Positions 24,092-59,799 of a stretch of DNA of 64,000 bases are shown here, piece after piece. A program made the translations under genes and the position numbers. Origin of the DNA: a bacterium (GTDB taxonomy: Bacteria; Zhuqueibacterota; Zhuqueibacteria; Residuimicrobiales; Krinioviventaceae); the NCBI GenBank assembly GCA_963674595.2, contig CAXXFV010000027.1:128001-192000 (forward strand), written 5' to 3'. How positions within the stretch are numbered: position 1 is the first letter of the stretch; every line of letters begins with the position of its first letter. The notes under the pieces were generated by a model that was given only the letters and a program-made list of their open reading frames with translations, searched no databases and had not been told where the DNA came from.

Positions 24092-24098
24092 CAAAAAT

Positions 24099-24130: not shown

Positions 24131-24257
24131 ATGGTTACTTTTCATGTTCTTATACGGAAAAAAATTGAAATTCCCGTTGTTATTTTTCTAAATTTGGTTA
24201 AATTATTTTTAAAATACAAATTCAAGCCAGAATTAAAAATAGAAACAGGAGATTACT

Positions 24258-25279: not shown

Positions 25280-25337
25280 AGAGAGAATGCTCATACTTGA
25301 ACTATCATCTGTGTATTATAATATTTTCAAAAAACTC

Positions 25338-25518: not shown

Positions 25519-25765
25519 TCACGCCGATAATATTATTAGATTGGGCAGAGAATACCCAATTGATAGAAAAATACATGACCATCAATATTTTTCGGAAAAA
25601 CCATAGTTAGTACAACCAACTATGTTATTAACTGTTAAACATGATATAAACTAATAATAGGACACAGACCCCATTTACTAACATTCAACTTTAATATCAA
25701 TGTATTGTAATGGTTGTCTTTTAAAAGACAACTCAAATAATAACATTAATTTATTGGAGGTTGAA

Positions 25766-26173
25766 ATGCCAAGTATTAAAATTAAAAAATTTTCTATTTC
25801 TGTCCCCACGAATAGTAAAATTAACGTTAATGTCGAGTTTGATATTACACAAACAGACACTGAAAAGCGTTTAGAGATTCCAGGCAAAGTATTCTTTCAT
25901 TTAATGGAATGGGATGGTTCTTATAAAGATACCATGAATTTAACAGCAGATGGAAGTTATCTGCGAACAGGTGAACAAGATGATGATATAGCCGCCTTTT
26001 ACAAATACGCAGGTATGTTTACATCAGGAACATATAAATTTACTTTTAGTGTAGATAAAAGTCATTTACCAGGAGAATGGGGGAATGAAGAATGGTACGT
26101 TATCGGAGAATGTACAGCCGATGTAATAGATTCTCTCACGTATTCAAAGCATCTAAGTCTCAATCTCGCTTAA
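25766..26173 (+). CDS. Hypothetical protein (135 aa)
   Basis: GGAGG RBS before ATG 25766; followed by hairpin AGCGGGAG/CTCCCGCT; no family recognised. Confidence 0.7.
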   Translation: MPSIKIKKFSISVPTNSKINVNVEFDITQTDTEKRLEIPGKVFFHLMEWDGSYKDTMNLTADGSYLRTGEQDDDIAAFYKYAGMFTSGTYKFTFSVDKSHLPGEWGNEEWYVIGECTADVIDSLTYSKHLSLNLA

Positions 26174-28314: not shown

Positions 28315-28815
28315 CACATACCATTTCCATTACCGTAGGGACAGCCCCCTGTGTCTGTCCTGGTATCGGGCAATTTATTGGGCAATCACAGGGGATTGCC
28401 CCTACAATATAGGGCAATTTATCGGGCAATCACAGGGGATTGCCCCTACAAAATCGGGTAATCACGGATAATCACACATACCATTTCCATTACCGTAGGG
28501 ACAGACCCCTGTGTCTGTCCTGGTATCGGGCAATTTATCGGGCAATCATAGGGGATTGCCCCTACAAAATCGGGTAATCAAAGATAATCACACATACCAT
28601 TTCCATTACCGTAGGGACAGACCCCCGTGTCTGTCCTGGTATCGGGCAATTTATCGGGCAATCATAGGGGATTGCCCCTACAAAATCGGGTAATCAAAGA
28701 TAATCACACATGCCATTTCCATTACCGTAGGGACAGACCCCCTGTGTCTGTCCTGGAATCGGGCAATTTGTCGGGCAATCACAGGGGATTGCCCCTACAA
28801 TATCGGGTAATCACA
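28315..28815. repeat. BIME-like array of GTAG-type REP palindromes (116-bp period)
   Basis: GTAGGGACAG..CTGTCC at 28335, 28495, 28611, 28727 paired with five inverted GGGCAATC..GATTGCCCCTAC copies; linkers nearly identical. Confidence 0.85.
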
Positions 28816-35282: not shown

Positions 35283-35308
35283 TACATTTTAAAAATTTCG
35301 GAGATACA

Positions 35309-35893
35309 ATGAACGATATGGTAAATAAAAATATATTAATTGTAGGTGTAGGCGGACAGGGTATTGTCCTTGTTAGTGAAATTATTGCCAAAGTATGTAT
35401 GACCTATGGATATGATGTTAAACAAAATGAAGTACACGGTATGGCGCAAAGAGGCGGCAGTGTTGTCAGTCATGTTCGTTATGGTAATAAAATCCATTCA
35501 CCCCTGATAGAGGTTGGACAGGCTGATGTACTCCTTTCCTTTGAACTTTTGGAAGCACAGCGATGGCTTTATTATTTAAAAAAAGATGGCATCGCCATTA
35601 TAAACACTCAACAAATCGAACCCATGTCGGTATTAAGCGGTAAAACAACCTACCCTGAAAATATAGAATCACAGATAAAAGACAGCGGCTGCAATGTTAA
35701 ATTTGTAAACGGAACCCAGATTGCCAAAGACGTCAATAATTTACGGTCGGTGAATATATCGCTGATTGGTGCATTGTCAAATGAACTGGAATTTGATGAA
35801 AACTTATGGACGGATGCAATTAAAGGCAGAGTACCGCAAAAAACAATTGAAAGTAATTTAAAAGCCTTTGAATTCGGCAGACAAGCAAAATAA
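35309..35893 (+). CDS. iorB: Indolepyruvate:ferredoxin oxidoreductase beta subunit
   Basis: GVGGQG, EVHGMAQRGGSVVSHVR, NLKAFEFG. Confidence 0.93.
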   Translation: MNDMVNKNILIVGVGGQGIVLVSEIIAKVCMTYGYDVKQNEVHGMAQRGGSVVSHVRYGNKIHSPLIEVGQADVLLSFELLEAQRWLYYLKKDGIAIINTQQIEPMSVLSGKTTYPENIESQIKDSGCNVKFVNGTQIAKDVNNLRSVNISLIGALSNELEFDENLWTDAIKGRVPQKTIESNLKAFEFGRQAK

Positions 35894-35931
35894 TATATCG
35901 CTTACCTTTATAGCGATGGAGGACATGTTCT

Positions 35932-37230
35932 ATGAAAAAATACAAAGTGGATTATTTAGACCAGGAAGAGTTATTAAATCTTCAACAGGAACGACTGCAA
36001 AAAGTAACAAAACATGTCTATGATAATGTTCCCTATTATCAGCAGGTATTTGACAAATTGGGCGCAAAACCTGAAGATTTTAAATCAATGGATAGTCTGA
36101 AACAACTTCCACTGACAGATAAAGAAGTTTTAAGGCAGCACTATCCGTTTGGATTATTTGCTGTTCCCATGTCTGAAGTAAAAGAAATACACGCATCATC
36201 CGGAACAACAGGCAAACCCACTGTTGTCGCCTATACTCAGGGCGATCTTAACGTATGGTCCGAAGTCATGTCACGAAGTATTGCCTGTACAGGCGGCTGT
36301 GAACAAGACATTATTCAAAATGCTTATGGATATGGTTTATTTACCGGCGGACTCGGTGTTCATTACGGCTCTTTGGAATTGGGTTCATCCGTTGTTCCGA
36401 TCTCTTCGGGAGGAACAAAACGACAGCTTCAGATCATGCAGGATTTTGGCACAACCATTATAACCTGTACTCCCTCCTACTCTGTTTATCTTGCTGAACA
36501 GGCTACGGCCCTTGGAATTGATCCACGACACACAACCATTCGAATTGGAATTTTAGGAGCAGAACCATGGAGCGATGGAATGCGTTCCGAAATAGAATCC
36601 TTATGGAATATTAAAGCCTATGACATTTACGGTTTGTCGGAAATAATCGGACCCGGTGTAGCTGTAGAATGTGAAGGCCAGCATGGTCTGCATATTTGGG
36701 CTGACCATTTTTATCCGGAAGTTATTAATCCGGTAACCGGAGAAGCAGTCGGCGAGGGTGAAGATGGTATGCTGGTTATTACTACGCTTACAAAAGAGGC
36801 CACTCCGTTTTTAAGATATGCAACCAAGGACATTGTAAATATTACCTATGAAAAATGTCCTGCCTGTGGACGAACCAGTCCCAGAATCAGCCGGGTAAAA
36901 GGCCGAACAGATGATATGTTGATCATTCGTGGTATTAACGTATTTCCGTCTCAAATAGAATCCGTTTTAATGGAAATTGAAGAAACAGACCCACATTATC
37001 AACTCATTGTCAGCCGGGAAGGCGCCCTGGATAAACTCGAAGTTCAGGTTGAAGTAAACGACAAATTTTTCTCAGATGAGATTCGAAAATTGGAAGCATT
37101 GGAAAATCGAATTAGGAAAGAAATTGAAAACGTACTGTCAATTGCTGTAAAAGTTAAGCTGGTTGAGCCGCTAACAATCACTCGCAGCGAAGGTAAAGCA
37201 AAACGTGTTATAGACACACGACAGATATAA
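35932..37230 (+). CDS. paaK: Phenylacetate-CoA ligase family
   Basis: [51 protein letters not shown]. Confidence 0.92.
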   Translation: MKKYKVDYLDQEELLNLQQERLQKVTKHVYDNVPYYQQVFDKLGAKPEDFKSMDSLKQLPLTDKEVLRQHYPFGLFAVPMSEVKEIHASSGTTGKPTVVAYTQGDLNVWSEVMSRSIACTGGCEQDIIQNAYGYGLFTGGLGVHYGSLELGSSVVPISSGGTKRQLQIMQDFGTTIITCTPSYSVYLAEQATALGIDPRHTTIRIGILGAEPWSDGMRSEIESLWNIKAYDIYGLSEIIGPGVAVECEGQHGLHIWADHFYPEVINPVTGEAVGEGEDGMLVITTLTKEATPFLRYATKDIVNITYEKCPACGRTSPRISRVKGRTDDMLIIRGINVFPSQIESVLMEIEETDPHYQLIVSREGALDKLEVQVEVNDKFFSDEIRKLEALENRIRKEIENVLSIAVKVKLVEPLTITRSEGKAKRVIDTRQI

Positions 37231-37320
37231 TTCGATGATAAAATAATTTTCGTTTTTAATCAATAATTATTACGGCTAAACTCCAAATTTGATCCTAATT
37301 ACCAAAGCAAGGAGTACAAA

Positions 37321-37752
37321 ATGAATATTAAACAAATTTCGGTTTTTTTAGAAAATCGTCCGGGACGGTTGGAAGAAATAACACATGTTTTATCAACAGG
37401 CGGTATCAACATTCGTGCGTTGTCACTGGCAGATACATCCGATTTTGGAATTCTCAGATTAATTGTTAACGATCCTGATAAAGCAATAAAACTGCTTAAA
37501 GAAGCAACATTTACCGTAAGAGAAAACGATGTGATAGCTGTAGAGATTGATGACAAACCAGGCGGTCTTTCTAAATTGCTGGGTATATTCAGCAAAGCCA
37601 GTATAAGTATAGAGTACATGTATGCATTTTTTGAGAAAAAAATTGATAAAGCTATTATGATAATTCGTGTGGAAGCAACGGCAAAGGCGTTAAAATCGCT
37701 TAAAGACGCTGGTGTTCCGCTTTTACGAAGCAGTGAAATCTATGAAATGTAA
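37321..37752 (+). CDS. ACT domain protein (tandem ACT)
   Basis: KQISVFLENRPGRL, INIRALSLADTSDFGILRLIV, IEYMYAF. Confidence 0.92.
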   Translation: MNIKQISVFLENRPGRLEEITHVLSTGGINIRALSLADTSDFGILRLIVNDPDKAIKLLKEATFTVRENDVIAVEIDDKPGGLSKLLGIFSKASISIEYMYAFFEKKIDKAIMIIRVEATAKALKSLKDAGVPLLRSSEIYEM

Positions 37753-37782
37753 AATGATAACCAAAATCTGAGGAATAGAACA

Positions 37783-39093
37783 GTGACTGCGCGAATATGG
37801 GACCCAGAATTTGAGACGATGCCCAAGGACCGACTTGATAAACTTCAACTGAAACGATTGCAGAATGTTGTCGAATATGCTTATGAAAAAGTGCCGTTTT
37901 ATAAGGATATTTTTACAAAAAACAATATTTCACACCAGGATATAAAAACGCTGGATCATTTACAAGACCTGCCGTTTACAACCAAGGCTGATCTGCAGGC
38001 AAGCTATCCCTATGGCATGTTTGCTGTACCGCTGTCGGATGTTGTCCGCATTCATTCCTCATCCGGGACAACCGGACAACCGACTGTTGTCGGGTATACC
38101 AGGAATGATTTGAATAACTGGACGGAGCTTATCGCCCGCTTATTAACGGCCGGCGGTGTAACAAAAAACGATATAGTTCAAATATGTTTCGGTTATGGAT
38201 TGTTTACAGGCGGATTTGGTTTACATTATGGCGTTGAGAGGGTCGGCGCAACCGTCATTCCTATTTCATCAGGCAATACCTCACGCCAAATGATGGTGAT
38301 GAAAGACTACCGGACCACGGCTATTGTTTGCACACCAAGCTATTCACTCTATCTTGCCGAATGTTTGCAAGAAGCCAAAATTGATCTCAATGATTTGCAG
38401 TTACGCACCGGTTTGTTTGGCGGCGAACCGTGGAGTGAAAATATGCGCACTGAAATAGAAAGCCGGTTAGGGATAAGTGCCACAGACAACTATGGTCTCA
38501 GCGAAGTTATGGGCCCCGGGGTTTCCATGGAATGCCTTGAGAAAAAAGGAATGCACATTTGTGAAGATCATTTTATTGCGGAAATTATCGATCCTGATAC
38601 TTGTCAGGTTTTACCCTATGGTGAAGTCGGTGAATTGGTCATTACAACAATCACCAAAGAGGCAATTCCTGTTATTCGTTACAGAACACGCGATATTACC
38701 CGATTAATTAAAGAACCCTGTGCCTGCGGCCGTACATTGGTTCGAATGGAGAAACCTCATGGCAGAACAGATGATATGCTGATCATCCGGGGCGTTAATG
38801 TATTCCCGTCACAAATTGAAACGGTACTTGTTGAAATGGACGAAACTGATCCGCATTACCAGCTTTTTATTAAAAGAGAAGGCGTGTTGGATACACTGGA
38901 AGTCCATGTGGAAATTAATGAAAAGTTTTTTGTTGATGAAATGAGAAGAATGAAAGAAATCGAACAAAAAATCTATAATCGTATAAAAAGTACCCTTGGA
39001 TTGTCGGTGAAACTGAAACTGGTGGAACCGAAATCACTTGTGCGAACAGAAGGAAAAGCAAAAAGAGTTTTTGATTTACGCCAAAAGAACTAG
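37783..39093 (+). CDS. paaK: Phenylacetate-CoA ligase family (second paralog)
   Basis: [51 protein letters not shown]; GTG start. Confidence 0.92.
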
Positions 39094-39139: not shown

Positions 39140-40165
39140 ATGATGAAATTCCGGGCTCTTCAATGTACAGTATTGTTTGTATCTCTTTTAACTTTAATGT
39201 TCTTAAATTTGAATTGCGGCAAAGGCGGAAACAAAGGAACAATTGAACTGTCCTACAGCATCTTTTTTCCACCAACACACATTCAATGTAAAACAGCTAT
39301 GGACTGGGCAAAGGAAATAGAAACCCGCACAAATGGTCGTGTTAAAATTTCAGTTTTTCCGGGCGGCACTCTCACAAAAGCACCACAGGTTTATGACGGG
39401 GTAGTTAATGGCATATCAGACATTGGTATGAGCTGTTTTGCTTATACGCGCGGTAGATTTCCACTATTAGAAGGATTGGATTTACCTCTGGGTTATCCTG
39501 ACGGGAAAACCGCCACAAAAATTGCCACTCAAATGGTGCAAAAATACAATCCGGAAGAAATTCAACAAACAAAAGTTATGTATATTCATGCTCACGGTCC
39601 CGGTATTTTGGCCAGCAAAAAGAAAGTAAGTACAATTGACGATATTAAAGGCATGAAAATCAGAGGAACCGGATTGTCATCAAAAATAATCCAGAGTCTT
39701 GGCGGTAATCCCATCGGCATGAGTCAACCGGAAACCTATGAAGCCCTGCAAAAAGGTGTTGTTGACGCTACATTTTGCCCGATTGAAACGTTAAAGGGAT
39801 GGAAACAGGGTGAAGTGATCAATTACGTTGTTGATACTTCTGTTATCGGTTATACAACTTCGATGTTTGTTGTTATGAATAAAGACAAATGGGAAAAACT
39901 TCCAAAAAACATTCAGGAAATTTTTAACAAAGTTAATGAAGAATGGGTCGTAAAACACGGTGAAGCCTGGGACCTGGCTGACGAAGAAGGTAAAAAATTT
40001 GTGCAGGAACTCGAGGTAGAGACAATAAAATTAAATCCTGCTGAATATCCGCAATGGGAAAAAGCCGTAAGTCCCATATTGGAAGACTATATTGCCACAG
40101 CAAAAGAAAAAGGTCTGGACGGACAGGCATTTCTTAACGATATAAAATCTTTGATGAACATATAA
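39140..40165 (+). CDS. dctP: TRAP transporter substrate-binding protein
   Basis: [33 protein letters not shown]; lipoprotein-like N-terminus. Confidence 0.9.
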
Positions 40166-40177
40166 AAACAGATCATT

Positions 40178-40705
40178 ATGGTTGAAAAAAATCAGAAAAA
40201 CTATTCTCTAAAAACAGTTCAAACAGCCTATGTTGCAGCTTTAAAAAAGACTGTTATGCTGCTTGCGCTTATTTCCGGTTTAAGTGTATTTTTAATGATG
40301 CTTGTTACAACGGTAGATGTTATTTTGAGGATTTTTGGCATTTCATTTATCGGTGCTTTTGATATTGTTACAATCGCCGGCGCTATTGCCATATCGGCAG
40401 CATTGCCCTACACCACCGCTGTTAAAGGGCATGTCGCCATCGAATATTTTTTTCAAAAATTTTCAAAATGGGGGCGCATCGTCGTTGATACCATTGCGCG
40501 CATCTTGTCAGTGACTTTATTTACGCTGCTTGCCTGGCACAGTATTAAGTATGGCAACAGTATGTTAAAAAGCGGTGAGGTAACATCGACTTTACAAATA
40601 CCGTTGTTCTGGGTACCGTTTATGATCGCTGTTTCCTGCTTTTTGGTTGTTTTGGTGATTATTTATCATATCGTACATCCCGGAAAGGAGCTGCTGAAAC
40701 CATGA
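40178..40705 (+). CDS. dctQ: TRAP transporter small permease
   Basis: 4 TM; DVILR, GHVAIEYF; between dctP and dctM. Confidence 0.88.
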   Translation: MVEKNQKNYSLKTVQTAYVAALKKTVMLLALISGLSVFLMMLVTTVDVILRIFGISFIGAFDIVTIAGAIAISAALPYTTAVKGHVAIEYFFQKFSKWGRIVVDTIARILSVTLFTLLAWHSIKYGNSMLKSGEVTSTLQIPLFWVPFMIAVSCFLVVLVIIYHIVHPGKELLKP

Positions 40706-42003
40706 CACCTGTTCAGATCGGAATTCTGGGTTGTATTTTATTATTAGTTTTGCTTATCAGCAGCATGCCCATTGCTTTTGTAATGGCGGTTGTCGGACTG
40801 ATCGGTTTTGCAGTCGTTGTTACACCGCATGCTGCCATGAGCATGATTACAACAGACCTTTTTTCAACATTTTCATCCTATAGTTTAACTGTTATACCGT
40901 TATTTATTTTTATGGGGCAACTGGCTTTTCATTCCGGTATCAGTAGACGGCTGTTTAACGCAGCTTACAAGTGGTTGGGCGCTTTACCCGGAGGACTGGC
41001 TATGGCGACAATCGGTGCTTGTGCAGGATTTGGAGCTATATGTGGTTCAGGACCGGCAACTGCCGCTACAATGGCTGCCGTGGCGCTCCCTGAAATGAAA
41101 CGTTATAACTATGATGTTGAACTTGGAAGCGGCGCTGTTGCCGCCGGCGGCAGTTTGGGAATGCTAATTCCTCCCAGTGTTGTTTTTATTGTTTACGCTA
41201 TTATGACGGAACAGTCCATAGGGAAACTTTTTCTTGCCGGCATAATCCCCGGTATACTAATCGCTACCATCTTTTGCTTAACAATTTACTTGAACTGTAT
41301 CTCAAGAAAACATCTGGGTCCCCCTGGAAAAAAAACAAGCTTTGTGGAAAAAATAAAATCCCTGAAATTCATTTTCGATACCCTTGTATTATTTTTGCTG
41401 GTAATGGGCGGAATGTTTCTTGGTTTCTTTACTCCGACAGAAGCAGCCGCTATTGGCGCTGCCGGTACATTGCTGATTGCTGTTATAAAAAAACAAATTA
41501 GTATTAAAATGATCATGCAATCACTTCGGGAAACGGTCAGAACTTCTTGTATGGTCATGACAATTGTTGCCGGTGCTGTTATGCTGGGACATTTTTTGGC
41601 GATCACACAAATTCCGTTCCATTTGGCGAACTGGCTCGCCAATTTGCCTTTACCGGGATGGATTATCGTGGCTTTTATTATTGGCTTTTATTTTATCAGC
41701 GGTTGTTTTGTTGATGCTCTTGCATTAATCCTGCTGACAATTCCCATTTTTTATCCGGTCATTACAGAGCTTGGTTACGACCCTATCTGGTTCGGTGTCA
41801 TTATTGTTGTCGTGACTCAAATGGGCGTCATTTCACCGCCTGTCGGCGTGAATGTATATGTCGTGTGCGGGATAGAAAGAGACGTTCCGCTGCAAACTGT
41901 TTTCAAAGGGGCACTGCCCTTTTTACTGGCCCTTATTATTTCTGCCATTATTCTCGTAGCATTTCCTCAGCTATCATTAATATTGCCAAATTTGGTTCAT
42001 TAG
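40702..42003 (+). CDS. dctM: TRAP transporter large permease
   Basis: IPLFIFMG, GSLGMLIPPS, SIGKLFLAGIIPG, DPIWFG, SPPVG. Confidence 0.92.
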   Translation: MTPVQIGILGCILLLVLLISSMPIAFVMAVVGLIGFAVVVTPHAAMSMITTDLFSTFSSYSLTVIPLFIFMGQLAFHSGISRRLFNAAYKWLGALPGGLAMATIGACAGFGAICGSGPATAATMAAVALPEMKRYNYDVELGSGAVAAGGSLGMLIPPSVVFIVYAIMTEQSIGKLFLAGIIPGILIATIFCLTIYLNCISRKHLGPPGKKTSFVEKIKSLKFIFDTLVLFLLVMGGMFLGFFTPTEAAAIGAAGTLLIAVIKKQISIKMIMQSLRETVRTSCMVMTIVAGAVMLGHFLAITQIPFHLANWLANLPLPGWIIVAFIIGFYFISGCFVDALALILLTIPIFYPVITELGYDPIWFGVIIVVVTQMGVISPPVGVNVYVVCGIERDVPLQTVFKGALPFLLALIISAIILVAFPQLSLILPNLVH

Positions 42004-43807: not shown

Positions 43808-43885
43808 TCTATTTCATTCACTACTCTATTTTATTTAATCTTTAACCTGGGGCAGCCAAAAATTTAATATTTTTTAAAATTCATC

Positions 43886-44064
43886 TTGCGTAGATTTTAT
43901 TTAATTCGTAATATTCTATTGTCAGGCGTAACAGGTTGTTTTCAGAATGGTTGGGAAATTGTGGGATATTTCGAAAAAAACCTGACTGACTTTCCATTTT
44001 TTAAATACGGGATTGACGGTATAAACGAAGAGATTGCATTGGATTCATTGCCATATTGCTGTTG
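43886..44064 (+). promoter_or_regulatory. Promoter plus conserved structured leader, copy 2 of 3
   Basis: TTGCGT-17-TAATAT, then GTCAG/CTGAC and CAGGTT/AACCTG stems; aligns with the other two copies. Confidence 0.6.
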
Positions 44065-44208
44065 GTTTACACGTCTGATTATATAATTTATAAACATTCT
44101 TTTAATAAATTTGGGTTTTTGTATTTATAGCGGTTGCTGATTTTTGTCAAATTGTATTAGAGGACATTGTTGTAAAATCTAAAAATTTTGAGCGATAAAG
44201 GAAATACT

Positions 44209-46230
44209 ATGAAAACAAAAATATTTATTCTTTCCATCTTTTTCTCAATAATATTGGGAAATAGTGTTGTTTATTGTTTTAGAAATCCGATTCAAATTGC
44301 AACCTCAAATTTAAAGGGCGCTACATATTATACAAATAACCGATTCATTGCACGAACATCGGATGATCGTTTGGTTGTTATTTATACCGACAAATTTGAC
44401 TCACAATATCAAATTTACTGGACATATAGCGATCATGGCTTTTCCTGGGCACCTCCTCAACTGCTTGCTGATGGAGATAATTGTGGTTTAACAATAGACG
44501 AAAATGATAATATATACCTCATTTACACCAATGATGAAAATGTGATATTCTTTTCAGTCCTTGAAAATGGAAAAAACATGTGGAATGAACCCATTAATGC
44601 AAAAACGATAGACGGCGATATAATCAAAGGTGAAGTGTCTGCCATCGAAGTAAGCGATTCTAATCTTATTCTTCTATATCTAAATAATGGATTATATTAT
44701 CATTCTTTTGCCCTGCCCTCATTATGTCCCACAAGTAATGCTGAACTAATAACTACTAAACCGACTGGTAAATTTTCAATTGCCGCTGATATCAGATTTA
44801 AAAAAGGCCCAATACATATCATGTGGGCTTCTGGTGATCTCTATTATTGTAACATAAACAATAACTCCGGCTCTAACTGGAATCTGTCATTTGATCCTGT
44901 CAGCATTAATGGATTTACTATAAGGTATTGGTCGCATGATTTTTATGAATTTATTAGTCCAAAAAGACCTTCAATGTCTGTTGATAATGATAACCATAAT
45001 GGCAATGAATATTATATTTCTTATGCCTTTGGTGACGAGAATAGGCTTGTAACCGGATTTATTTCAGCAAACAATAATAATGCTTCATTTCGTTATTTTG
45101 ATTTCTACGAAACTGAAAATGAACAGATCTTTCCATGCGTGGATGATGTGGTAAATATAGATCAATCTTGCGCTTTGGTTTGGAATGGTGATGTTGATAA
45201 AAATATTTATTATGCACAAATGGAAGCAGCATATTTAGGGACACTCCCTCCAATTCCGGTTTCAGATGATAATGACAGCTATAAATCTCATCCCAATGTT
45301 TGTTATCGCACATTTCGGGCTGATTATTTTGATGTTATTTGGACGGAAGGAAATGCTCCGCCATACAAAGTTATGTTTAGACGAATGGGCAAGAGATCTA
45401 ATCGACTACCACAGAACCTTACCATAGAAAAAAAAAGCTTTTACTATATTCCTTACCAAAAGTACTGGAATGTTTCATCGATTGCAGCGGGAGGCAAACA
45501 TCCATACAATTGGGAGGTCCTTTCAGGTTTTTTACCACCCGGTTTAACAATTGAAGAGGAGGATTGTATTAAAGGGACACCTACAAAATCAGGAAACTAT
45601 AACTGTCTTGTTAAAGTAACAGATTCAACAATTCCGGCCGATTCAGATTCGAAAAACTTTTATTTTAATATAATCAATCATGCGCCAGAGATTACCTCGC
45701 CTGATACAGTATATGTTAAAATTGACAGCCTTTTGCAATATCAACCCACAGCAGATGATATGGAGGAAAATTCCATACAATGGCATTTTAGTGAATATCC
45801 AGTCTGGATGACGGCTGATTCATCCCGGATACAGGGCATTGTCCCCTCTGACTTTGAGGATGCGTCCTTTATTATTACAGCGTCTGACGGTGAGCTGGCA
45901 GATACCCTGCGTGTTTACGTCAAGTTATTTAACAGCACCTCTGTGGATGGAAACAGTGGCATCCCCTTAAAATTCACTCTTTACCAGAACTATCCAAATC
46001 CTTTTAATCCGGCGACAATAATAAAATACAGGTTGGCTAAAGCAAATAAAGTAACATTAAAAATATTTAATCTTTGTGGTCAGGAAGAAGAAACACTGGT
46101 AGATGATTTTCAATCAGCAGGTGAGCATACCTTATATTGGCAGCCAAAAAATTTAACCAGCGGCTTGTATTTTTACAGATTATATGCTGGCGAATTTTCA
46201 GCAACAAAGAAATTAATTTTACTAAAATAA
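44209..46230 (+). CDS. Secreted protein with BNR-like N-terminus, putative Ig repeats and C-terminal T9SS-type sorting-like domain
   Basis: Signal peptide; YSDHGFSW; GGKHPYNWEVLSGFLPPGL..GTPT; LYQNYPNPFNPAT..SGLYFYRL. Confidence 0.78.
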   Translation: MKTKIFILSIFFSIILGNSVVYCFRNPIQIATSNLKGATYYTNNRFIARTSDDRLVVIYTDKFDSQYQIYWTYSDHGFSWAPPQLLADGDNCGLTIDENDNIYLIYTNDENVIFFSVLENGKNMWNEPINAKTIDGDIIKGEVSAIEVSDSNLILLYLNNGLYYHSFALPSLCPTSNAELITTKPTGKFSIAADIRFKKGPIHIMWASGDLYYCNINNNSGSNWNLSFDPVSINGFTIRYWSHDFYEFISPKRPSMSVDNDNHNGNEYYISYAFGDENRLVTGFISANNNNASFRYFDFYETENEQIFPCVDDVVNIDQSCALVWNGDVDKNIYYAQMEAAYLGTLPPIPVSDDNDSYKSHPNVCYRTFRADYFDVIWTEGNAPPYKVMFRRMGKRSNRLPQNLTIEKKSFYYIPYQKYWNVSSIAAGGKHPYNWEVLSGFLPPGLTIEEEDCIKGTPTKSGNYNCLVKVTDSTIPADSDSKNFYFNIINHAPEITSPDTVYVKIDSLLQYQPTADDMEENSIQWHFSEYPVWMTADSSRIQGIVPSDFEDASFIITASDGELADTLRVYVKLFNSTSVDGNSGIPLKFTLYQNYPNPFNPATIIKYRLAKANKVTLKIFNLCGQEEETLVDDFQSAGEHTLYWQPKNLTSGLYFYRLYAGEFSATKKLILLK

Positions 46231-51717: not shown

Positions 51718-51802
51718 ATAATTTATTAAAAGCAATAGTTGCTTCCCTCCTGCTGTTCCAGTTTGCCTGCTGAAATATATCACAATTTATTTTAAAAAAA
51801 CC

Positions 51803-51984
51803 TTGCACTGATTTTATTTAATTTGTAATATTAAAATGTCAGTGCTAACGAATTGTTTTCAGAACGGTTGGGAGTATGCGGGCGATTCTGAAATCTGTTT
51901 TTGCTGATTTTCCATCTTAAAAATATGGGCACCAAACAAACACGAGGAAGAGATTGAACCGGGACGTAAATCACATTCCTGTTG
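51803..51984 (+). promoter_or_regulatory. Promoter plus conserved structured leader, copy 3 of 3
   Basis: TTGCAC-17-TAATAT, then GTCAGTG/TGCTGAT and TTTCAGAA/TTCTGAAA stems; aligns with the other two copies. Confidence 0.6.
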
Positions 51985-52083
51985 TTAATCCACCAAACCT
52001 TATTTGGCTGGGAAAAGTACGTTCTGTTGTGGGAAAAATTCCAGTTAATTAAATCTGTTTTTATCTATTTCGGGAGACATGAC

Positions 52084-52335
52084 ATGGAAAGCAAAAAGAC
52101 AACAAACCTGTTACTTTTAATCATTACTGTTTGTTTAATCCTCATCACAGGTAAGTTATATAATGTCCCTTTAACATCAGATGCCAATGCACAAAACAGT
52201 ACGATGAATGTAAAAGTTGAAAACTTTGAAGAGTTAGAGTGGAAAATAAGATACCAATTAATGGCGATATTTAATTTAAGTCTAACTAAAAAATCATTAG
52301 ATGTAAACGTGCTTAATATAGATGATTTAAAATAA
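52084..52335 (+). CDS. Small hypothetical exported/membrane-anchored protein (83 aa)
   Basis: GGAG RBS before MESKKTTNLLLLIITVCLIL..ANAQ. Confidence 0.6.
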   Translation: MESKKTTNLLLLIITVCLILITGKLYNVPLTSDANAQNSTMNVKVENFEELEWKIRYQLMAIFNLSLTKKSLDVNVLNIDDLK

Positions 52336-52398
52336 AAGAATAAAGTTTCTAAAAACTTTCAAACTATGTTACCATCCTGTTCATACTCAGAGGTGCCT

Positions 52399-54429
52399 AT
52401 GCTAAATCGACACGGAAACGCACTAAAGATATTATTTATCCTGATATTTTTGCACACAATACCACTCTTTTCACAAACACAGGGAAAACTTGCCATTGCT
52501 GTGGTGGACCTGGATGCTCCCGGTTTAAAAGCCGGAACACGGAAGGCCTTGTCCGACCGGTTAAGGAATGAACTTTTCTATACGGGCCGTTTTTCAGTTA
52601 TGGAACGCCATAAAATGGAAGATATTTTAAAAGAGCAGGGATTTCAACAGTCCGGTTGTACAAGCAAAGAATGTGTTGTTGAGGTTGGTCGTATATTAGG
52701 CGTAAAGCAGATGATCTCGGGCAGTGTCGGTAAAGTGGGCACGATTTATACCATTTCACTTCGTATGATTGATATTGAAACCGGACGAATTATGCTCACC
52801 AAAACAGAAGACTGTAACTGTCCCATTGAAATGGTGTTGACCACTGCGCTGCGTAATATTGCCATTAAAATGGCCGGCCTACCTCTGAACAATAAAACTC
52901 TCAGGGAAATACAAAAACGGTCAGCTATTGGGACCGGTGATTTTTATTTCAAATCAGAGCCGGTAGGCGCCACAGTATATATCGATGAAAAACCGCAAAC
53001 CGGGGTAACGCCTTTAACAATTGAGAATATTCCGACAGGGATACACCAAATAAGTATGAAAAAAGGCAATTACAGCGGCAGTCAAACAGTTTATCTCGAA
53101 CCCAACGAATTTAAAAGAGTGGAAATTAAACTGGTAAAAGCAAAAGGTTCATTAAAAATAATTTCCCAGCCTTTGGAAGCAGACATTTTTCTGGACAATA
53201 AATACAGTGGTAAAACACCTCAAACCCTGTCGAATCTGGATGCCGGAGAACATCGTCTTAAACTTTCCAAATCCGGCTATGAAGACTATGAACAAGTCTT
53301 ATCAATTAAAGGCAATAAACAGGAACGAATAACTGTGGATTTGCCCGAAATACTGCCGGCAACTTTAAAGATTATATCACAACCGGCAGATTGTGATGTT
53401 TACCTGAACAGGCAATTTAAAGGGAAAACACCTCTGGTTCTCCATAAAGTAACACCCGGTTTTACATCCATTCTTCTAACTCATCCGATGCACAAAGACT
53501 GGATGACCACAATTGTTTTAGAAAGCACAGAAGCCAAAGAACTGGAACCCGTTTTAAAGAAAAAAACAGGCAAAATTGTAATTAATTCAAAACCTGATGG
53601 AGCAGATATAAAAATTAATGGCGTTCCAACAGGAAAAACTCCTCTTGTGATCTCTGAGATTGAATATGGCAAATATACAATTAAAATATCCAAGCGGGAT
53701 TATGAAACAAAAACGGAATATATATCACTTTATTCAGAGAATACAAAGACAATTAACACCAGACTTTTGCCCGGGAAAGCAAAACTTACCATCAAAGGCA
53801 GCCCAGCCGGTGCAGATATTTTAATTAATAACGAATTAGCCGGGAATATGCCTTTGACAAAAAATGAAATGGACGCCGGTGAATATTCCATACGAATCAC
53901 GGCCTCAGGTTACGAAAATCAAAAGGCAAAAATTAAACTATTACCCAATAAAACCAGTGACATTAAAATTGATTTAACACGAAAATCGAATAAAAGGGCT
54001 TTTTATCGTTCTTTGTGTCTTCCCGGGTTGGGACAGCACTATTTGGGGAAAAATCAAAAAACCGTCATCTTTCCAATTCTTGAAATAGGGGCGATAACAG
54101 GGATTCTTTTATGCGAAAAAAATTTCTCCAAAGCCAACTCAGACTATAACACTGCACGTACAAATTATTCTCAAACAGCGGAACAATATCTCCTTGACCG
54201 ATATTACGCACAAATGAAAAATTATTATAATGAAATAAAATCCGCAGAAAAAAAGCGTAATTTTTTTATTGGAGCTGCGGTTGGAATATGGATTTGGAAC
54301 GCTGTTGATGCCCTGCTATTTTCTTCTAATTCAGATACAATGACCAGAATGAATGAAAATAGCGACGTCAAACTTTCCTCATCTAATTTTGATGGGAAAC
54401 AACTGATCGGATTGAATATTAATTTTTAG
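52399..54429 (+). CDS. PEGA-repeat protein with N-terminal CsgG/FlgO-like domain and C-terminal membrane region
   Basis: IAVVDLD..LSDRLR..MEDILKEQGFQQSGC..VEVGRILGV; five S.P.GA.V.I.G..GKTP PEGA repeats; SLCLPGLGQHY. Confidence 0.82.
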   Translation: MLNRHGNALKILFILIFLHTIPLFSQTQGKLAIAVVDLDAPGLKAGTRKALSDRLRNELFYTGRFSVMERHKMEDILKEQGFQQSGCTSKECVVEVGRILGVKQMISGSVGKVGTIYTISLRMIDIETGRIMLTKTEDCNCPIEMVLTTALRNIAIKMAGLPLNNKTLREIQKRSAIGTGDFYFKSEPVGATVYIDEKPQTGVTPLTIENIPTGIHQISMKKGNYSGSQTVYLEPNEFKRVEIKLVKAKGSLKIISQPLEADIFLDNKYSGKTPQTLSNLDAGEHRLKLSKSGYEDYEQVLSIKGNKQERITVDLPEILPATLKIISQPADCDVYLNRQFKGKTPLVLHKVTPGFTSILLTHPMHKDWMTTIVLESTEAKELEPVLKKKTGKIVINSKPDGADIKINGVPTGKTPLVISEIEYGKYTIKISKRDYETKTEYISLYSENTKTINTRLLPGKAKLTIKGSPAGADILINNELAGNMPLTKNEMDAGEYSIRITASGYENQKAKIKLLPNKTSDIKIDLTRKSNKRAFYRSLCLPGLGQHYLGKNQKTVIFPILEIGAITGILLCEKNFSKANSDYNTARTNYSQTAEQYLLDRYYAQMKNYYNEIKSAEKKRNFFIGAAVGIWIWNAVDALLFSSNSDTMTRMNENSDVKLSSSNFDGKQLIGLNINF

Positions 54430-54445
54430 TCAATGGGGATGCCAT

Positions 54446-56770
54446 ATGAAACGTTTACTAGTATATTCTTACCTTTTGATCATTTTTGCGTTTATTGCTA
54501 TAATACATTGTGAAAAAAAGCCAACTGAACCGGAACGGGACAATCCGTTAGATGTAAAAAATGTTACAACAGTCGGAGATCCTTTTAACCTGACCTGTGC
54601 TTTTGCCAATGGCGGGGTGAAGCTAACCTGGACCAAAGTCGGTTTGTCATCAATTAAAGGATATAATATTTATCGCAGTGAATCACAAGAAACAGGATAT
54701 ACCCAAATACATCAGGCATTGAATACCTACACATTCACAGATAAAGCCGTGAAAAACGGTCATGTTTATTATTATAAAATCACAGCGTTTTTAACAAATG
54801 GCCAGGAAAATAACCAAAGCAACATTGAAGCGGTTCGTATTCACACGGACCCTTTGATTGTAATAAACAGCGATGAACAATATTCGGCCATTCGTAATGT
54901 TGAACTGACAATCATCGCATCCGATGCCAAGGAAATGTGGCTGTGTAATAATGATCAATTCACCGAAGGCAACTGGGAAAGTTATAATTCATTAAAGGAC
55001 TGGACATTATCCACAGGAGAAGGCACAAAGAATGTCTACCTGAAAATAAAATATGAAAATGATGAGGTTTCCAATATATCTTCAGACAATATTCTGCCCC
55101 TGCCCATGCAGCCGTCGGTTAAAATTGCCAATGACAGTGTGTATACATCCAGACGGGATGTTTCAGTGTTATTTTCAGCAACCGGTGAAAATTTATATAT
55201 GAAAGTCAGTCAGGATTCAGGTTTTACAAATATTGGCTGGGAAGAATACACAACCTCTAAAAATATGACACTACCTGCCGGTGACGGCACTAAAACAGTA
55301 TATGCTAAGTTTAAAAATGATTTTGAAATCGAATCAGCTACCATTTCAGATGATATTCTACCGCAGCCGATGAAACCTGAAATTATTATTTCTGATGGTA
55401 GTACTTATACTTCAACCCGTGAGACAGTATTAAATTTAAAGGCAACCGGTGAAAATTTATATATGAAAGTTAGCCAGGATTCCGGTTTTACAAATGTTTC
55501 CTGGGAAGAGTATACAACCTCTAAAAATATGACATTACCTGATGGTGATGGAGCCAAAACAGTATATGCTAAATTTAAAAATGATTTTGAAATCGAATCA
55601 AACATAATTTCTAATTCAATCATATTAGATATGACAGGTCCTATAGCAGATTTTTCTGTTACACCAACCATTGGAGTTGCTAATGTAACATTTTTTGAAT
55701 TTGATGCAACCAACAGCTATGATAATTTCTCACTCATGCTGCGCTGGGATTGGGATAATGATGGTAACTATGATACGGACTGGTGGACAATCAAAACAGC
55801 AACCCAACTTTTTCAAACTGGCGGTGGTGACAGAACTGTTGGATTACAAGTAAAGGATGGTGCTGGACATACCGCTCATATAAGTAAATCTGTTTATGTT
55901 AATACATATCCTGTTGCATCTTTTACAGTATCCTGGGATGAAAATACTTATCTACTTTATCACGTTGACGCTTCTTTTTCATCAGATTATGAGGATGGCA
56001 AAAATCTGGAGTATCGCTGGGACTGGAACAATGACGGTATATGGGACACCCATTTTAGTTCTAATAAGATTATAGCTCATCAATATAGTAGTGAAGGTAA
56101 TAAGATAGTAAAACTTGAGGTTAGGGATACAAAAGGGCTAACACATTCAACAGTAAAGCAACTGTCTGAGCCATTTACAGTAACCGATATTGACGGAAAT
56201 ACATATAAAGTAGTAAAAATTGGTAATCAATGGTGGATGGCCGAAAACTTAAAAGTTACACATTACGGAAATGGTGACGCCATACCCAAGGTAATTGAAG
56301 AGGGCTCTTGGTATTTTACTAATTCCGGTGCTTATTGTATATATGACAATAACGACGAAAATGCATCTACTTATGGTTGTTTATATAACTGGTATGCTGT
56401 TTATGATACCCGTAAAGTAGCCCCTGATGGTTGGCATGTTCCAAATGATGAAGAATGGAATACATTAATTGATTATCTAGGTGGAAGTGAAATTGCAGGC
56501 GGTAAAATGAAAGAGGCTGGTACTGTTCACTGGCAAAGCCCAAATACCGGAGCGACGAATGAAAGTGGATTTTCAGCAGTACCTAGCGGTTACAGGACAT
56601 TAAGTGGGAGTGAATTTTTATTTTCAGGTCAGAGGTCCTATTATTGGTCTGCTACAAATGCCGCAATTATAGATGCAAGAAATTTTAGTCTCAATTATCG
56701 AAGTGCCGAAATTTATAATGTAGGAAGTAACAAAAAGTGGGGCTTTTCTGTTCGCTGCATACGAGACTAA
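54446..56770 (+). CDS. Lipoprotein with FN3, internal repeats, PKD domains and C-terminal FISUMP (Fibrobacter succinogenes major paralogous) domain
   Basis: Lipobox IIHC, ERDNPLD; RWDWDNDG PKD motifs; TDIDGNTYKVVKIGNQWWMAENLK..LYNWYAV..GFSVRCIRD. Confidence 0.87.
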   Translation: MKRLLVYSYLLIIFAFIAIIHCEKKPTEPERDNPLDVKNVTTVGDPFNLTCAFANGGVKLTWTKVGLSSIKGYNIYRSESQETGYTQIHQALNTYTFTDKAVKNGHVYYYKITAFLTNGQENNQSNIEAVRIHTDPLIVINSDEQYSAIRNVELTIIASDAKEMWLCNNDQFTEGNWESYNSLKDWTLSTGEGTKNVYLKIKYENDEVSNISSDNILPLPMQPSVKIANDSVYTSRRDVSVLFSATGENLYMKVSQDSGFTNIGWEEYTTSKNMTLPAGDGTKTVYAKFKNDFEIESATISDDILPQPMKPEIIISDGSTYTSTRETVLNLKATGENLYMKVSQDSGFTNVSWEEYTTSKNMTLPDGDGAKTVYAKFKNDFEIESNIISNSIILDMTGPIADFSVTPTIGVANVTFFEFDATNSYDNFSLMLRWDWDNDGNYDTDWWTIKTATQLFQTGGGDRTVGLQVKDGAGHTAHISKSVYVNTYPVASFTVSWDENTYLLYHVDASFSSDYEDGKNLEYRWDWNNDGIWDTHFSSNKIIAHQYSSEGNKIVKLEVRDTKGLTHSTVKQLSEPFTVTDIDGNTYKVVKIGNQWWMAENLKVTHYGNGDAIPKVIEEGSWYFTNSGAYCIYDNNDENASTYGCLYNWYAVYDTRKVAPDGWHVPNDEEWNTLIDYLGGSEIAGGKMKEAGTVHWQSPNTGATNESGFSAVPSGYRTLSGSEFLFSGQRSYYWSATNAAIIDARNFSLNYRSAEIYNVGSNKKWGFSVRCIRD
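55178..55600 (+). repeat. Intragenic tandem duplication, 264-bp (88-aa) period
   Basis: GCAACCGGTGAAAATTTATATATGAAAGT..GATTTTGAAATCGAATCA at 55178 and 55442, nearly identical. Confidence 0.85.
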
Positions 56771-56908
56771 GATATTTCCAGCATAAACAGTTTCAAGAGC
56801 AATATTATGCGAACTTTGCAGAGTATGATTATTTATAAGGTCAATTGAAATTAACTGCCGGTATATAGAAGGAAGAATAAATTAGGGGTCAAATCACATA
56901 CGGGAATG

Positions 56909-56939
56909 AATGGTGGAATCCGTATTGAACTCCACCATT
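56909..56939. terminator. Hairpin between convergent genes
   Basis: AATGGTGGA/TCCACCATT stem just past the stop of the small minus-strand gene. Confidence 0.55.
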
Positions 56940-56945
56940 TAAGAG

Positions 56946-57116
56946 TTAAAAACCTTTTAATACGGTTCCGAGGAAAAGAAGAATATAACCGATTACGACC
57001 AACCAGAAGGCATATACACTGAGGAATGGTACCGTAACAACAGCGCCGATAACACCAAGTATTGCCAAAATTAGTGAAACTAACCAAACATTCTTTTTAG
57101 GTGCTGAAAGTTTCAT
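56946..57116 (-). CDS. Small two-helix membrane protein (56 aa); not in the ORF track
   Basis: GGAGG RBS; MKLSAPKKNVWLVSLILAILGVIGAVVTVPFLSVYAFWLVVIGYILLFLGTVLKGF*. Confidence 0.8.
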   Translation of the reverse strand: MKLSAPKKNVWLVSLILAILGVIGAVVTVPFLSVYAFWLVVIGYILLFLGTVLKGF

Positions 57117-57366
57117 AGTTCCTCCACTTTTTGTTAAAATGTATTGTTAACACACGGCACAATAGCCGCTTAATTTTCACAAAACTGGTATTGTCTTTAA
57201 CTCTTAAAACAGTCCGTAATTATACTAAAAAGCTGTACAAACATATTCTTAAAAAAATTATATCAAATAATCATATAAATAGCAAGAATAAATTCAAAAT
57301 ATTTCCCTTGATTTATTTGCTAAAATATTTTAGTATAACAATCAAATTTTTGCTATCAGACTCTTA

Positions 57367-59799
57367 ATGATGGGAGACATCATGGATGATTATGAAAAGT
57401 TAGGTGCATTTTATTTGGGGCGGACACATGATCTCGATAAAAATATTACGCGCAACGAGCTGCTTCTTTATGATTCAAAAGATTTGACCACGCACGCCGT
57501 TTGTATTGGTATGACAGGAAGCGGCAAGACCGGTTTATGCATAGATCTGCTGGAAGAAGCCGCCATTGATGGCATACCCGCACTTGTTATTGATCCCAAA
57601 GGTGACATGACAAATCTGCTTCTAAATTTTCCTAATCTTTCCGCTGAGGAATTTAAACCCTGGATTAATGAGAACGATGCCAGGAAAAATGAAATATCTC
57701 CTGAAGAATATGCAGAAAAACAGGCTGTTTTTTGGAAAACGGGATTAAACAAGTGGGACCAGGGTAGTGAAAGAATTCATCGCCTTAGAAATGCTGCAGA
57801 GTTTGATATTTTTACACCGGGCAGTTCTGCCGGTTTACCTGTTTCCATATTAAAATCATTTTCAGTTCCTCCACAGGAAGTGCTGGATGATACCGATACA
57901 TTAAATGAACGAATCTCCATGACAACAACCAGTTTATTGAGTTTGATGGGGATTGATGCTGACCCGATTAAGAGTCGCGAACATATTCTAATGTCAACTA
58001 TTATCAATTATTATTGGACGAATGGTCAGGATTTGGATTTGGCCTCCTTAATCCAGGCGATTCAATCTCCCCCTGTTTCCCGGATAGGTGTATTTGATTG
58101 TGATGTATTTTACCCTGCAAAAGAACGATTTGAATTAGCCATGATCCTGAATAACCTGCTTGCAGCGCCAAGTTTCCAAACATGGCTTGAAGGTGAAAGT
58201 CTGGACATTAATTCGTTGCTTTACACACAAACCGGCAAACCAAGAATATCTATTTTTTCTATCGCGCATTTATCGGATAATGAACGAATGTTTTTTGTGT
58301 CACTTTTACTTAACCAAATTCTGGGTTGGATAAGGACACAATCCGGAACATCGAGTTTGAAAGCAATTTTATATTTTGATGAAATATTCGGTTATCTACC
58401 GCCAACAGCTAATCCTCCCTCGAAAAAAGCACTATTGACATTATTAAAACAGGCAAGAGCATTTGGGTTAGGTATTGTGCTTTCCACACAAAATCCTGTT
58501 GATTTGGATTATAAAGGCTTGTCAAATACGGGCACATGGTTTATCGGGCGTTTACAAACAGAGCGTGACAGAGACAGAGTTTTAGACGGGCTTTTGGGTT
58601 CTTCGAGTCAGGGTTTTGATCGCAATACTTTAGAACAAATGATATCTCAACTTGGGAAAAGAATATTTTTACTGCACAATGTTCATGAACAAAAGCCTGA
58701 GCTCTTTGAAACCCGATGGGCAATGTCCTATCTAACGGGTCCGCTTACAAGACCTCAAATCAAAAAACTGATGGATGTTAAAAAGAACAAAATTAAAGCA
58801 GGTATTGAATCACCTGTTGAAGAAGGCCCAAAAGTTACAGAAACAAGCAGCCGCCCTAATCTTGCACCGGAAATAAATCAATTTTTTATAAATGTCAAAA
58901 GATCAATTCCTGAACAGCAACCAATCGTATATCGGCCTTTTATATGGGGCAGTGCAATAGTACAATTCAGGGACAAGCCGCGAAACATTGATATGCAGGA
59001 GACATTTAAAATCATCACACCAATAAATAATGAAATTATTGCTGTTGACTGGAACAATTCAGAGGCCATTGACCTGGAAATTTCAGAACTTTCAAAAGAA
59101 AGTGAAAAATATGCAAAGTATGAAAATTTGCCGATAGCCGCAAACCAACTAAAAAGTTACAAGGCGTGGCAAAAGGATTTTATTGGATATATTCATCAAA
59201 ACAAAAAATTAACATTACTCAAAAGTGTTAATTACAAGATCACCTCAGAGCCAAATGAAACAGAGAGAGATTTTCGAATCCGTTTATCACAAATAGCAAG
59301 AGAACAAAGAGACGAATGGACCGGTAAGCTACGCGAAAAATATGCAAAAAAATTATCTTCCCTGGAAGCTAAAATTAGAACGGCAGAAGATCGTGTGGAG
59401 CGGGAGATGGCACAGGCAAAACAACAAAAAATGCAAACGGCAATATCAATTGGAACGACCATTCTGGGCGCATTTTTGGGACGAAAAGCTCTTAACCGAA
59501 CAGCTATCAACAAAGCTGGGACGGCAATACGAAGCGCCGGCCGCAGCAGAAAAGAAGCCGGAGACGTGGCAAGGGCCCAGGAAAATTTAAAAGTATTGCA
59601 GGAACAACTGGACGAAATTAATGAAAAATTCCAGACTGAGCTTGAGGACTATTCTTTAAAAAATGATGTTAACCAGGAAGAGTTTGAAACAATTTTTATC
59701 CGACCTTTAAAAACCAACATTTCAGTACAGTTGTTAAGTTTGGTTTGGGTTCCATTCCAGGAGTTAGAAGACGGAATTATTGTTCAGGCATATAGCTAA
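57367..59799 (+). CDS. DUF87/HerA-FtsK-like P-loop ATPase with C-terminal coiled coil
   Basis: THAVCIGMTGSGKTG, IDPKGD, YFDEIFG, LLKQARAFG, TQNPVDLDYK. Confidence 0.85.
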   Translation: MMGDIMDDYEKLGAFYLGRTHDLDKNITRNELLLYDSKDLTTHAVCIGMTGSGKTGLCIDLLEEAAIDGIPALVIDPKGDMTNLLLNFPNLSAEEFKPWINENDARKNEISPEEYAEKQAVFWKTGLNKWDQGSERIHRLRNAAEFDIFTPGSSAGLPVSILKSFSVPPQEVLDDTDTLNERISMTTTSLLSLMGIDADPIKSREHILMSTIINYYWTNGQDLDLASLIQAIQSPPVSRIGVFDCDVFYPAKERFELAMILNNLLAAPSFQTWLEGESLDINSLLYTQTGKPRISIFSIAHLSDNERMFFVSLLLNQILGWIRTQSGTSSLKAILYFDEIFGYLPPTANPPSKKALLTLLKQARAFGLGIVLSTQNPVDLDYKGLSNTGTWFIGRLQTERDRDRVLDGLLGSSSQGFDRNTLEQMISQLGKRIFLLHNVHEQKPELFETRWAMSYLTGPLTRPQIKKLMDVKKNKIKAGIESPVEEGPKVTETSSRPNLAPEINQFFINVKRSIPEQQPIVYRPFIWGSAIVQFRDKPRNIDMQETFKIITPINNEIIAVDWNNSEAIDLEISELSKESEKYAKYENLPIAANQLKSYKAWQKDFIGYIHQNKKLTLLKSVNYKITSEPNETERDFRIRLSQIAREQRDEWTGKLREKYAKKLSSLEAKIRTAEDRVEREMAQAKQQKMQTAISIGTTILGAFLGRKALNRTAINKAGTAIRSAGRSRKEAGDVARAQENLKVLQEQLDEINEKFQTELEDYSLKNDVNQEEFETIFIRPLKTNISVQLLSLVWVPFQELEDGIIVQAYS

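Follow-up and report, generated by a model that had tools for sequence, protein, structure and literature searches.

The region treated here raises a question that is easily put: why should one intergenic sequence stand, in three versions, ahead of different surface-protein genes, and does it act as DNA or as RNA? The element concerned is a promoter-plus-leader module of about 235 bases, located at ~51787-52020 on the plus strand of a 64-kb stretch of the bacterial contig CAXXFV010000027.1; we call the whole of this stretch the window, and all positions are counted within it (54 of its open reading frames, ORFs, were screened, and 14.4% of it is intergenic). We suggest, tentatively and with somewhat less than an even chance of being right, that the module is a lineage-restricted, undescribed cis-acting leader RNA, stabilising the messenger RNA (mRNA) or docking a factor on it, that serves a small regulon whose genes encode exported surface proteins.

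Three copies and a conserved hairpin

The element under study is the third of three paralogous copies in the window, all on the plus strand. Copy 1 lies at ~25320-25555 and copy 2 at ~43868-44100; copy 3 itself served as the blastn query (51761-52100 against the window), and the three were aligned with MAFFT. Copy 2 was matched at 43866-43956 (78% over 91 nucleotides, nt; E 5.7e-15) and copy 1 at 25322-25519 (68% over 204 nt; E 1.9e-8). Similarity among all three runs from about 25 nt upstream of a -35-like hexamer to about +150, and between copies 1 and 3 it extends to about +185, taking in a distal block, TTATTnGnnTGGGnAnAG (52000-52017), which only these two share and which lies at 25533-25550 in copy 1. 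The original prediction, a model's reading of the letters alone, had described this longer similarity, and the alignment recovers it. The same prediction had spoken of a family of leaders, and the placement of the copies bears this out: all three are intergenic, run in the same direction as the following gene and stand 246-328 nt before its start codon. The repeat family is better than chance. No fourth copy in the window emerged from an nhmmer profile (next-best E 0.38) or from an unfiltered covariance-model search, in which the three copies scored 86-103 bits and the next-best candidate 13.2 bits. Every motif that the prediction had listed was in its place, both on reading the window and on locating each string with a script.

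The evidence that carries our proposal is a hairpin domain of 72 nt at 51838-51909 on the plus strand, recognised from the minimum free energy (MFE) folds of the three copies and from an alignment-shuffle test. Its outermost helix, P1a, joins GTCAGTG (51838-51844) to TGCTGAT (51902-51908) through seven pairs, three of them G-U. Alignment and fold then place a short P1b (~51850-51852 with 51899-51901), followed by P2, in which TTTCAGAA (51857-51864) and TTCTGAAA (51886-51893) are perfectly complementary, and by a G-rich apical loop of 21 nt (51865-51885) that holds the invariant series TGGG, 7 nt, GGG. Folded alone, the 72-nt region takes the identical architecture (P1a, internal loop, P1b, P2 and large loop) in all three MFE folds, with energies of -12.3, -16.1 and -19.7 kcal/mol against -5.4, -13.0 and -9.0 kcal/mol for the reverse complements. 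RNAalifold likewise gave -13.71 kcal/mol on the plus strand, where the covariation term was favourable, and -6.14 kcal/mol on the minus strand, where it was unfavourable.

The alignment can be set against 500 column shuffles that preserve its conservation pattern. The consensus energy of the hairpin is -9.60 kcal/mol, compared with -2.72 +/- 1.84 kcal/mol in the shuffles (z -3.74; one of the 500 as low), and its structure conservation index (SCI) is 0.59, compared with 0.22 (nine of the 500 as high). Across P1a, P1b and P2, 6 of the 19 pairs are changed on both sides and yet still paired, 89-95% of cells are paired, and about ten cells in the three copies are G-U. In these sequences the 72-nt hairpin stays paired across compensatory and G-U changes, and it does so on the plus strand only. 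The G-U-bearing helix of P1 and P2 had been predicted as a plus-strand RNA hairpin, and this is upheld by the compensatory changes and by the contrast of -9.60 with -1.41 kcal/mol on the reverse strand.

The main rival, which we regard as unlikely, is that the module works at the DNA level only. The copies would then have one promoter in common, strong or under special regulation and perhaps read by an alternative sigma factor, with operators past +1, and the hairpin would be incidental. This rival draws on the conservation of the DNA upstream of the hairpin. There, a putative promoter (51803-51831, plus strand) made up of TTGCAC (51803-51808), an A/T spacer of exactly 17 nt and TAATAT (51826-51831) falls in invariant alignment columns. 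It is preceded directly by an A/T-rich tract (51783-51802, plus strand), possibly an UP-like element, and the alignment shows hexamers, spacer and tract alike to be conserved in all three copies. The best-conserved stretch of the module includes the hexamers and the entire spacer; the 3' half is conserved without structure, as operator or roadblock sites would be; and a poor fit to sigma-70 leaves room for another sigma factor. Against such a DNA-level cassette, the hairpin is strand-specific in energy (-9.60 versus -1.41 kcal/mol) and in SCI (0.59 versus 0.14 on the reverse strand of the alignment). It tolerates G-U pairs, which on the opposite strand would be A.C mismatches, and its six double changes preserve the pairing. 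GGG, moreover, outnumbers CCC by 12 to 0 in the three cores (GGG at 21.9 per kb, compared with 7.6 per kb in the window), which is a strand-specific signal.

The proposed leader RNA and its weak points

If the module is a leader RNA, as we propose, it would act in cis after initiation. Transcription would start a few bases before P1a, so that the hairpin would stand at the 5' end of the mRNA, where it may protect or mark the transcript. A shared trans-acting factor, most likely an RNA-binding protein, with a small ligand as a possibility, would dock on the conserved single-stranded tail and the G-rich loop. Such a factor would co-regulate a small set of surface-coat genes and genes for type IX secretion system (T9SS) cargo through mRNA stability or translation, by a mode that would involve neither an intrinsic terminator nor direct pairing of the core with the ribosome-binding site.

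Several results weigh against this proposal. The trans-acting factor is putative, and GGA motifs are only 1.5-fold enriched in the leaders over other intergenic DNA (20.9 versus 14.0 per kb). The structure rests on three paralogs from one genome, the same sequences having served for its derivation and its test, and because of this the pair-count controls lean toward the hairpin; the z scores of the hairpin in the single sequences (-1.73, -1.41 and -1.94 in the three copies) are only modest, at -1.4 to -1.9. The promoter, too, is imperfect. In copy 3 the hexamers agree with the sigma-70 consensus at 7 of 12 positions (TTGCAC at three of six, TAATAT at four of six), and a simple consensus promoter scan called none of the three copies. 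With so weak a match and no promoter call, we can therefore only infer the start site, which in copy 3 we place ahead of a P1a that begins 7 nt past the -10-like hexamer.

The remainder of the leader also counts against the proposal. Full leaders, 183-185 nt in length, are not more stable than their shuffles (z -0.02, +0.54 and -0.77), and in the ~110 nt that follow the hairpin it is the sequence that is conserved and not the predicted structure. Two further helices had been predicted in this part, and these did not survive the analysis. The first, a short hairpin of CCAT (51912-51915) with ATGG (51925-51928) that spans 51912-51928 on the plus strand, is conserved in sequence and shows no covariation; the second, AGGAA with TTCCT, is interrupted by C.C and G.G in copy 2. 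Together with their linker the two reach a z of -0.15 in the alignment-shuffle test, with 107 of 300 shuffles as good, which is the chance level, and the distal part of the 3' half stands at -0.99, with 49 of 300 shuffles as good. Within the leader, conserved RNA structure is confined to the 5' 72 nt (51838-51909).

The search for relatives also returned nothing that would extend the family beyond the window. A strict 18-base pattern taken from the loop and P2 was scanned against species-representative genomes; it found 67 loci in many phyla, none of them a family member, their agreement being limited to the pattern (best nhmmer E values 2.2e-4 and 1.1e-3 against the family models; best covariance-model scores 20.2 and 17.7 bits). 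The window's own copies are missing from these 67 loci, so the source species is apparently outside that genome collection. A blastn comparison with plasmids and phages gave no match.

Within the databases covered, the family appears to be undescribed. Rfam 15 (4227 models) was run over the window at gathering thresholds and over each copy in E-value mode. At gathering, the whole window yielded only a transfer RNA (tRNA) at 24018-24091. In E-value mode copy 1 had no match, copy 2 six (E of at least 2.6) and copy 3 ten (E of at least 3), those of copy 3 lying far below gathering, and no Rfam family was common to different copies; the prediction that no known family would match thus holds for all three. 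Among the papers listed by searches of the literature, none linked T9SS to a riboswitch, leader RNA or structured noncoding RNA, and none listed for riboswitches or RNA motifs of Ignavibacteria named that group; both are weak evidence.

Alternative functions of the leader

The sequence-conserved block of the 3' half (51945-51984, plus strand) consists of GAAGAGATTG, 16 nt and ACATTCCTGTTG, and contains AGGAA at 51945-51949 and TTCCT at 51976-51980. The conservation of the module could be imagined to come from a leader peptide, that is, a small upstream ORF starting at the conserved TTG of an ATTG motif or at the ATG at 51925. AGGAA indeed precedes the conserved TTG in copies 1 and 3, ORFs of 40 residues (25488-25610) and 32 residues (51954-52052) begin at the same aligned TTG, and their first 13 codons are similar, with a few third-position differences. 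Copy 2, however, has only a 14-residue ORF there, and no AGGAA. The cross-copy peptide score of 45 is below the 59-62 obtained from non-coding frames of both strands, where only DNA conservation contributes, and the DNA similarity of copies 1 and 3 continues past a frame-shifting indel of 1 nt. The ORFs started by ATG are also unlike in frame and length, with 10 residues (ATG 51925) in one case and 51 in another, and there is none in copy 2; the frame of ATG 51925 is listed as an 18-residue ORF started by TTG (51901-51957). With ORFs that differ among the copies in frame, length and start, and with a peptide score below the DNA background, the leader peptide was rejected, and we consider it very improbable.

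We would be just as surprised if the module had no function of its own, as a duplication remnant or as a mobile or invertible promoter element. Its presence in several copies with sharp boundaries of similarity is what such an origin would leave. Against it, orientation and position relative to the downstream gene are the same in all copies, the flanking genes are unrelated apart from a sorting domain, and the divergence is patterned and not uniform, invariant motifs alternating with compensating stems. A search of the three regions found no module-flanking inverted repeats common to the copies, which argues against a miniature inverted-repeat transposable element or an invertible promoter.

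The tail just 3' of P1, TTTTCCA (51908-51914, plus strand), bears on a different kind of reading, as it is a candidate pseudoknot partner of the loop sequence TGGGAG. Pairing of the loop TGGGAN with the tail NTTCCA fills 17 of 18 cells over the three copies and includes one compensatory pair. In the control, however, a score of 17 of 18 is attained at 2 of the 172 offsets, so that the pseudoknot is only a lead. Pairing of the second G-run with the TTCCTG block was also tried and was rejected, with at most 15 of 18 cells paired.

A riboswitch-like aptamer could be built from these parts, with the hairpin, the G-rich loop and the loop-tail pseudoknot binding a small ligand, for example a second messenger, and thereby switching surface-protein expression. 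We hold this to be rather improbable. In its favour, invariant loop and tail nucleotides lie beside variable, compensating stems, the candidate pseudoknot with its 17 paired cells and one compensatory pair would compete with the CCAT/ATGG hairpin, and a surface- or adhesin-like gene context is typical of cyclic-dinucleotide riboswitches. Against it, no Rfam riboswitch family was matched even at E <=10, no terminator was found in the leaders, and the proposed pseudoknot partner scores no better than one other offset (2 of 172). The predicted folds also show no pairing of the core with the ribosome-binding site, from which it is separated by 60-150 nt of non-conserved leader. In copy 3 this proximal leader (52018-52083, plus strand) carries the Shine-Dalgarno sequence GGGAG at 52072-52076 and pairs locally in the predicted fold, not with the conserved core; more generally, in the full-length MFE folds all predicted partners of the ribosome-binding region lie in proximal leader that is not conserved (44124-44149; 52039-52062). 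A further-reaching form of the idea, in which a pseudoknotted aptamer with a G-rich loop at the very 5' end of the mRNA would be a new, lineage-specific sensor of a ligand or factor, would bring the T9SS cargo and the PEGA/FISUMP surface-coat operon under a single post-transcriptional signal, for example a second messenger, and would do without a classical terminator or a platform that sequesters the Shine-Dalgarno sequence, strikes us as doubtful in similar measure.

We also observed an exact direct repeat of 12 nt, AAATCTGTTTTT, at 51891-51902, in the region of the 3' strand of the hairpin, and again at 52051-52062, just upstream of the copy 3 Shine-Dalgarno sequence. It could be chance in T-rich sequence.

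Processive antitermination, in which the leader would recruit a NusG paralog of the RfaH, UpxY or LoaP type or would modify RNA polymerase directly, is one of the roles that the original prediction had suggested. In its favour, a promoter-proximal, conserved hairpin leader stands before multi-gene surface operons, and hairpins in the leader are a working part of the LoaP and UpxY systems (PMC12691694; PMC11685472). We nonetheless find it improbable. A NusG or KOW domain was found in none of the 54 screened ORFs, and in none of the first genes after the leaders even at E <=10. An ops search with a 12-nt pattern, allowing at most two mismatches, gave 32 loose matches in the window where 20.8 were expected, none of them within the leader regions (25320-25700, 43868-44208 and 51787-52083). 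Nor is there a terminator for the leader to overcome: plus-strand terminator-like sites are absent from all three leaders, the single site there being on the minus strand (25624-25602), and such sites are not enriched downstream, with 6 in 52000-57400 compared with 4.0 +/- 1.9 in shuffles. The units are short besides, at 2, 2.6 and 4.7 kb. The defining features of the RfaH, LoaP and UpxY systems, as far as the sequence allows them to be tested, thus appear to be absent. For neither the riboswitch nor the antitermination reading was a positive sign found.

Downstream genes and known systems

The unit that follows copy 3 on the plus strand occupies 52084-56770, about 4.7 kb, and consists of three genes: an ORF of 83 residues whose N-terminus is hydrophobic (52084-52335), a protein with five PEGA domains, a CsgG-like N-terminal part and DUF5683 (52366-54429), and a protein with PKD and FISUMP domains and a lipoprotein-like signal (54446-56770). 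That copy 3 heads such a unit of small ORF, PEGA and FISUMP genes had been foreseen and is confirmed. Copy 1 is followed, also on the plus strand, by a 157-residue ORF of no family (25700-26173) and by a 654-residue protein with a T9SS type A sorting domain (26323-28287), and copy 2 by a 673-residue plus-strand protein with He_PIG and T9SS type A sorting domains (44209-46230). A T9SS sorting domain occurs in 2 of the 54 screened ORFs, and both carry the leader. These two proteins share the C-terminal sorting domain only (37% over 98 residues), while their leaders belong to a set 68-78% identical in DNA, so that conservation is far higher in the leaders than in the genes behind them. Hydrophobic or signal-like N-termini are present in every downstream protein except that of the 157-residue ORF.

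The two small first ORFs, of 83 and 157 residues, matched no Pfam family at E <=0.001, gave only unrelated weak matches at E <=10, and had no match in NCBIfam. For the 83-residue ORF the ESM Atlas returned unnamed clusters only, the top one with 78 members, Bacteroidota being the commonest phylum among the 18 of known phylum.

Most genes in the window have Shine-Dalgarno sites of the AGGAG type, for example upstream of 3747, 24258, 30059, 33552 and 37321, and this use of Shine-Dalgarno sequences, together with the T9SS sorting domains, suggests a lineage of the Fibrobacteres-Chlorobi-Bacteroidetes (FCB) group outside the classical Bacteroidia. Just downstream of the T9SS gene at 26323-28287 is a tandem array (28364-28813; period 116 nt, 3.5 copies, 95% matches) that contains a 44-nt sub-repeat with a GC-rich palindrome. 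After the FISUMP gene, in 56771-59799, come a 596-nt gap with a small hydrophobic ORF on the minus strand (56851-57087) and, beyond this gap, an 810-residue protein with weak HerA/FtsK-like ATPase matches, all under the curated cut-offs.

Elsewhere in the window, a TonB-dependent receptor on the minus strand (17352-19677) is apparently split into a part with Plug and CarboxypepD_reg domains (18985-19677), an ORF of no family (18224-18718) and a beta-barrel C-terminal part (17352-18242). It has an internal gap of 266 nt and an ORF-poor stretch of 496 nt upstream (19678-20173), and may be a disrupted gene. The 1.2 kb between divergent genes at 23045-24257 have no ORF of at least 90 residues and hold only the tRNA at 24018-24091, followed by a terminator-like hairpin. 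The cluster at 33552-39093, which encodes indolepyruvate:ferredoxin oxidoreductase-like subunits, an ACT protein and two phenylacetate-CoA-ligase-like enzymes, is a hallmark of the anaerobic metabolism of aromatic amino acids, and TRAP transporter genes (39140-42003) come after it.

The interest of the leader lies in the regulon that it may define. How T9SS cargo and surface-coat proteins are co-regulated is poorly known beyond a few model Bacteroidia, and a shared leader RNA before unrelated cargo genes, if our proposal is true, would suggest post-transcriptional control of a regulon in an FCB-group bacterium. It would also add a new family to the orphan cis-regulatory RNAs, with the 72-nt hairpin and its invariant G-runs as a compact handle. 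Should the module turn out to be merely a promoter cassette with a stabilising stem, this would be ordinary biology, and the module would still be of use for marking a surface-protein regulon with high expression.

A comparison with known leaders places the module only in part. The report on the LoaP-dependent dfn (difficidin) leader of Bacillus velezensis describes a small hairpin that is required for post-initiation control of a long operon; that hairpin is a small one of the UNCG type and works with a NusA-dependent intrinsic leader terminator (PMC12691694). The loaP genes lie near their target operons. Our module resembles this system in placing a hairpin in the 5' leader of an operon, and differs from it in that its hairpin is 72 nt long and has a G-rich loop of 21 nt, and in that neither a leader terminator nor, within the window, a NusG-like gene was found. 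RfaH and its ops (JUMPstart) element offer the likeness of a conserved element that lies in the promoter-proximal leader of surface and virulence operons, as set out in the same report (PMC12691694), whereas our three leaders have no match to the ops pattern and none in Rfam. For the capsule operons of Bacteroides, the UpxY/opsX work describes related but variable leaders whose pause hairpins aid recruitment of a factor, the factor being encoded by the first gene of the operon and the non-template DNA being recognised at the pause site (PMC11685472). The likeness is that of variable but related leaders before operons for surface structures, with an FCB-group host in the Bacteroides case. The first genes here, of 83 and 157 residues, are different in having no similarity to NusG or KOW, and the targets are proteins, where those in Bacteroides are polysaccharide loci.

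Three further classes of leader share some features with the module and lack others. Cyclic-di-GMP riboswitches of classes I and II occur upstream of genes for adhesins and surface proteins, and the gene context, as well as the conserved unpaired nucleotides beside compensating stems, is alike; our leaders, in contrast, have no match to them in Rfam at E <=10, and no expression platform was detected in them. Leaders bound by CsrA, such as that of pgaA, carry several GGA sites. The leaders here, 246-328 nt long, have six GGA each, the last of which, in copies 2 and 3, falls within or close to the Shine-Dalgarno sequence, but GGA is enriched 1.5-fold only, and two of the conserved G-runs of copy 3 are GGGC and not GGA. 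Stem-loops that stabilise a transcript from its 5' terminus are found on the mRNAs of abundant envelope proteins (ompA, aprE and S-layer genes). Such stem-loops are not known to require a conserved loop sequence or a conserved tail of 110 nt, and in our case the 5' end to which the hairpin would belong is putative. The module is nevertheless like these stabilisers in its long untranslated leader, in a hairpin at or near the inferred 5' end, in a strong-looking promoter context, in preceding genes for abundant exported proteins, and in showing neither a terminator nor a switch at the ribosome-binding site.

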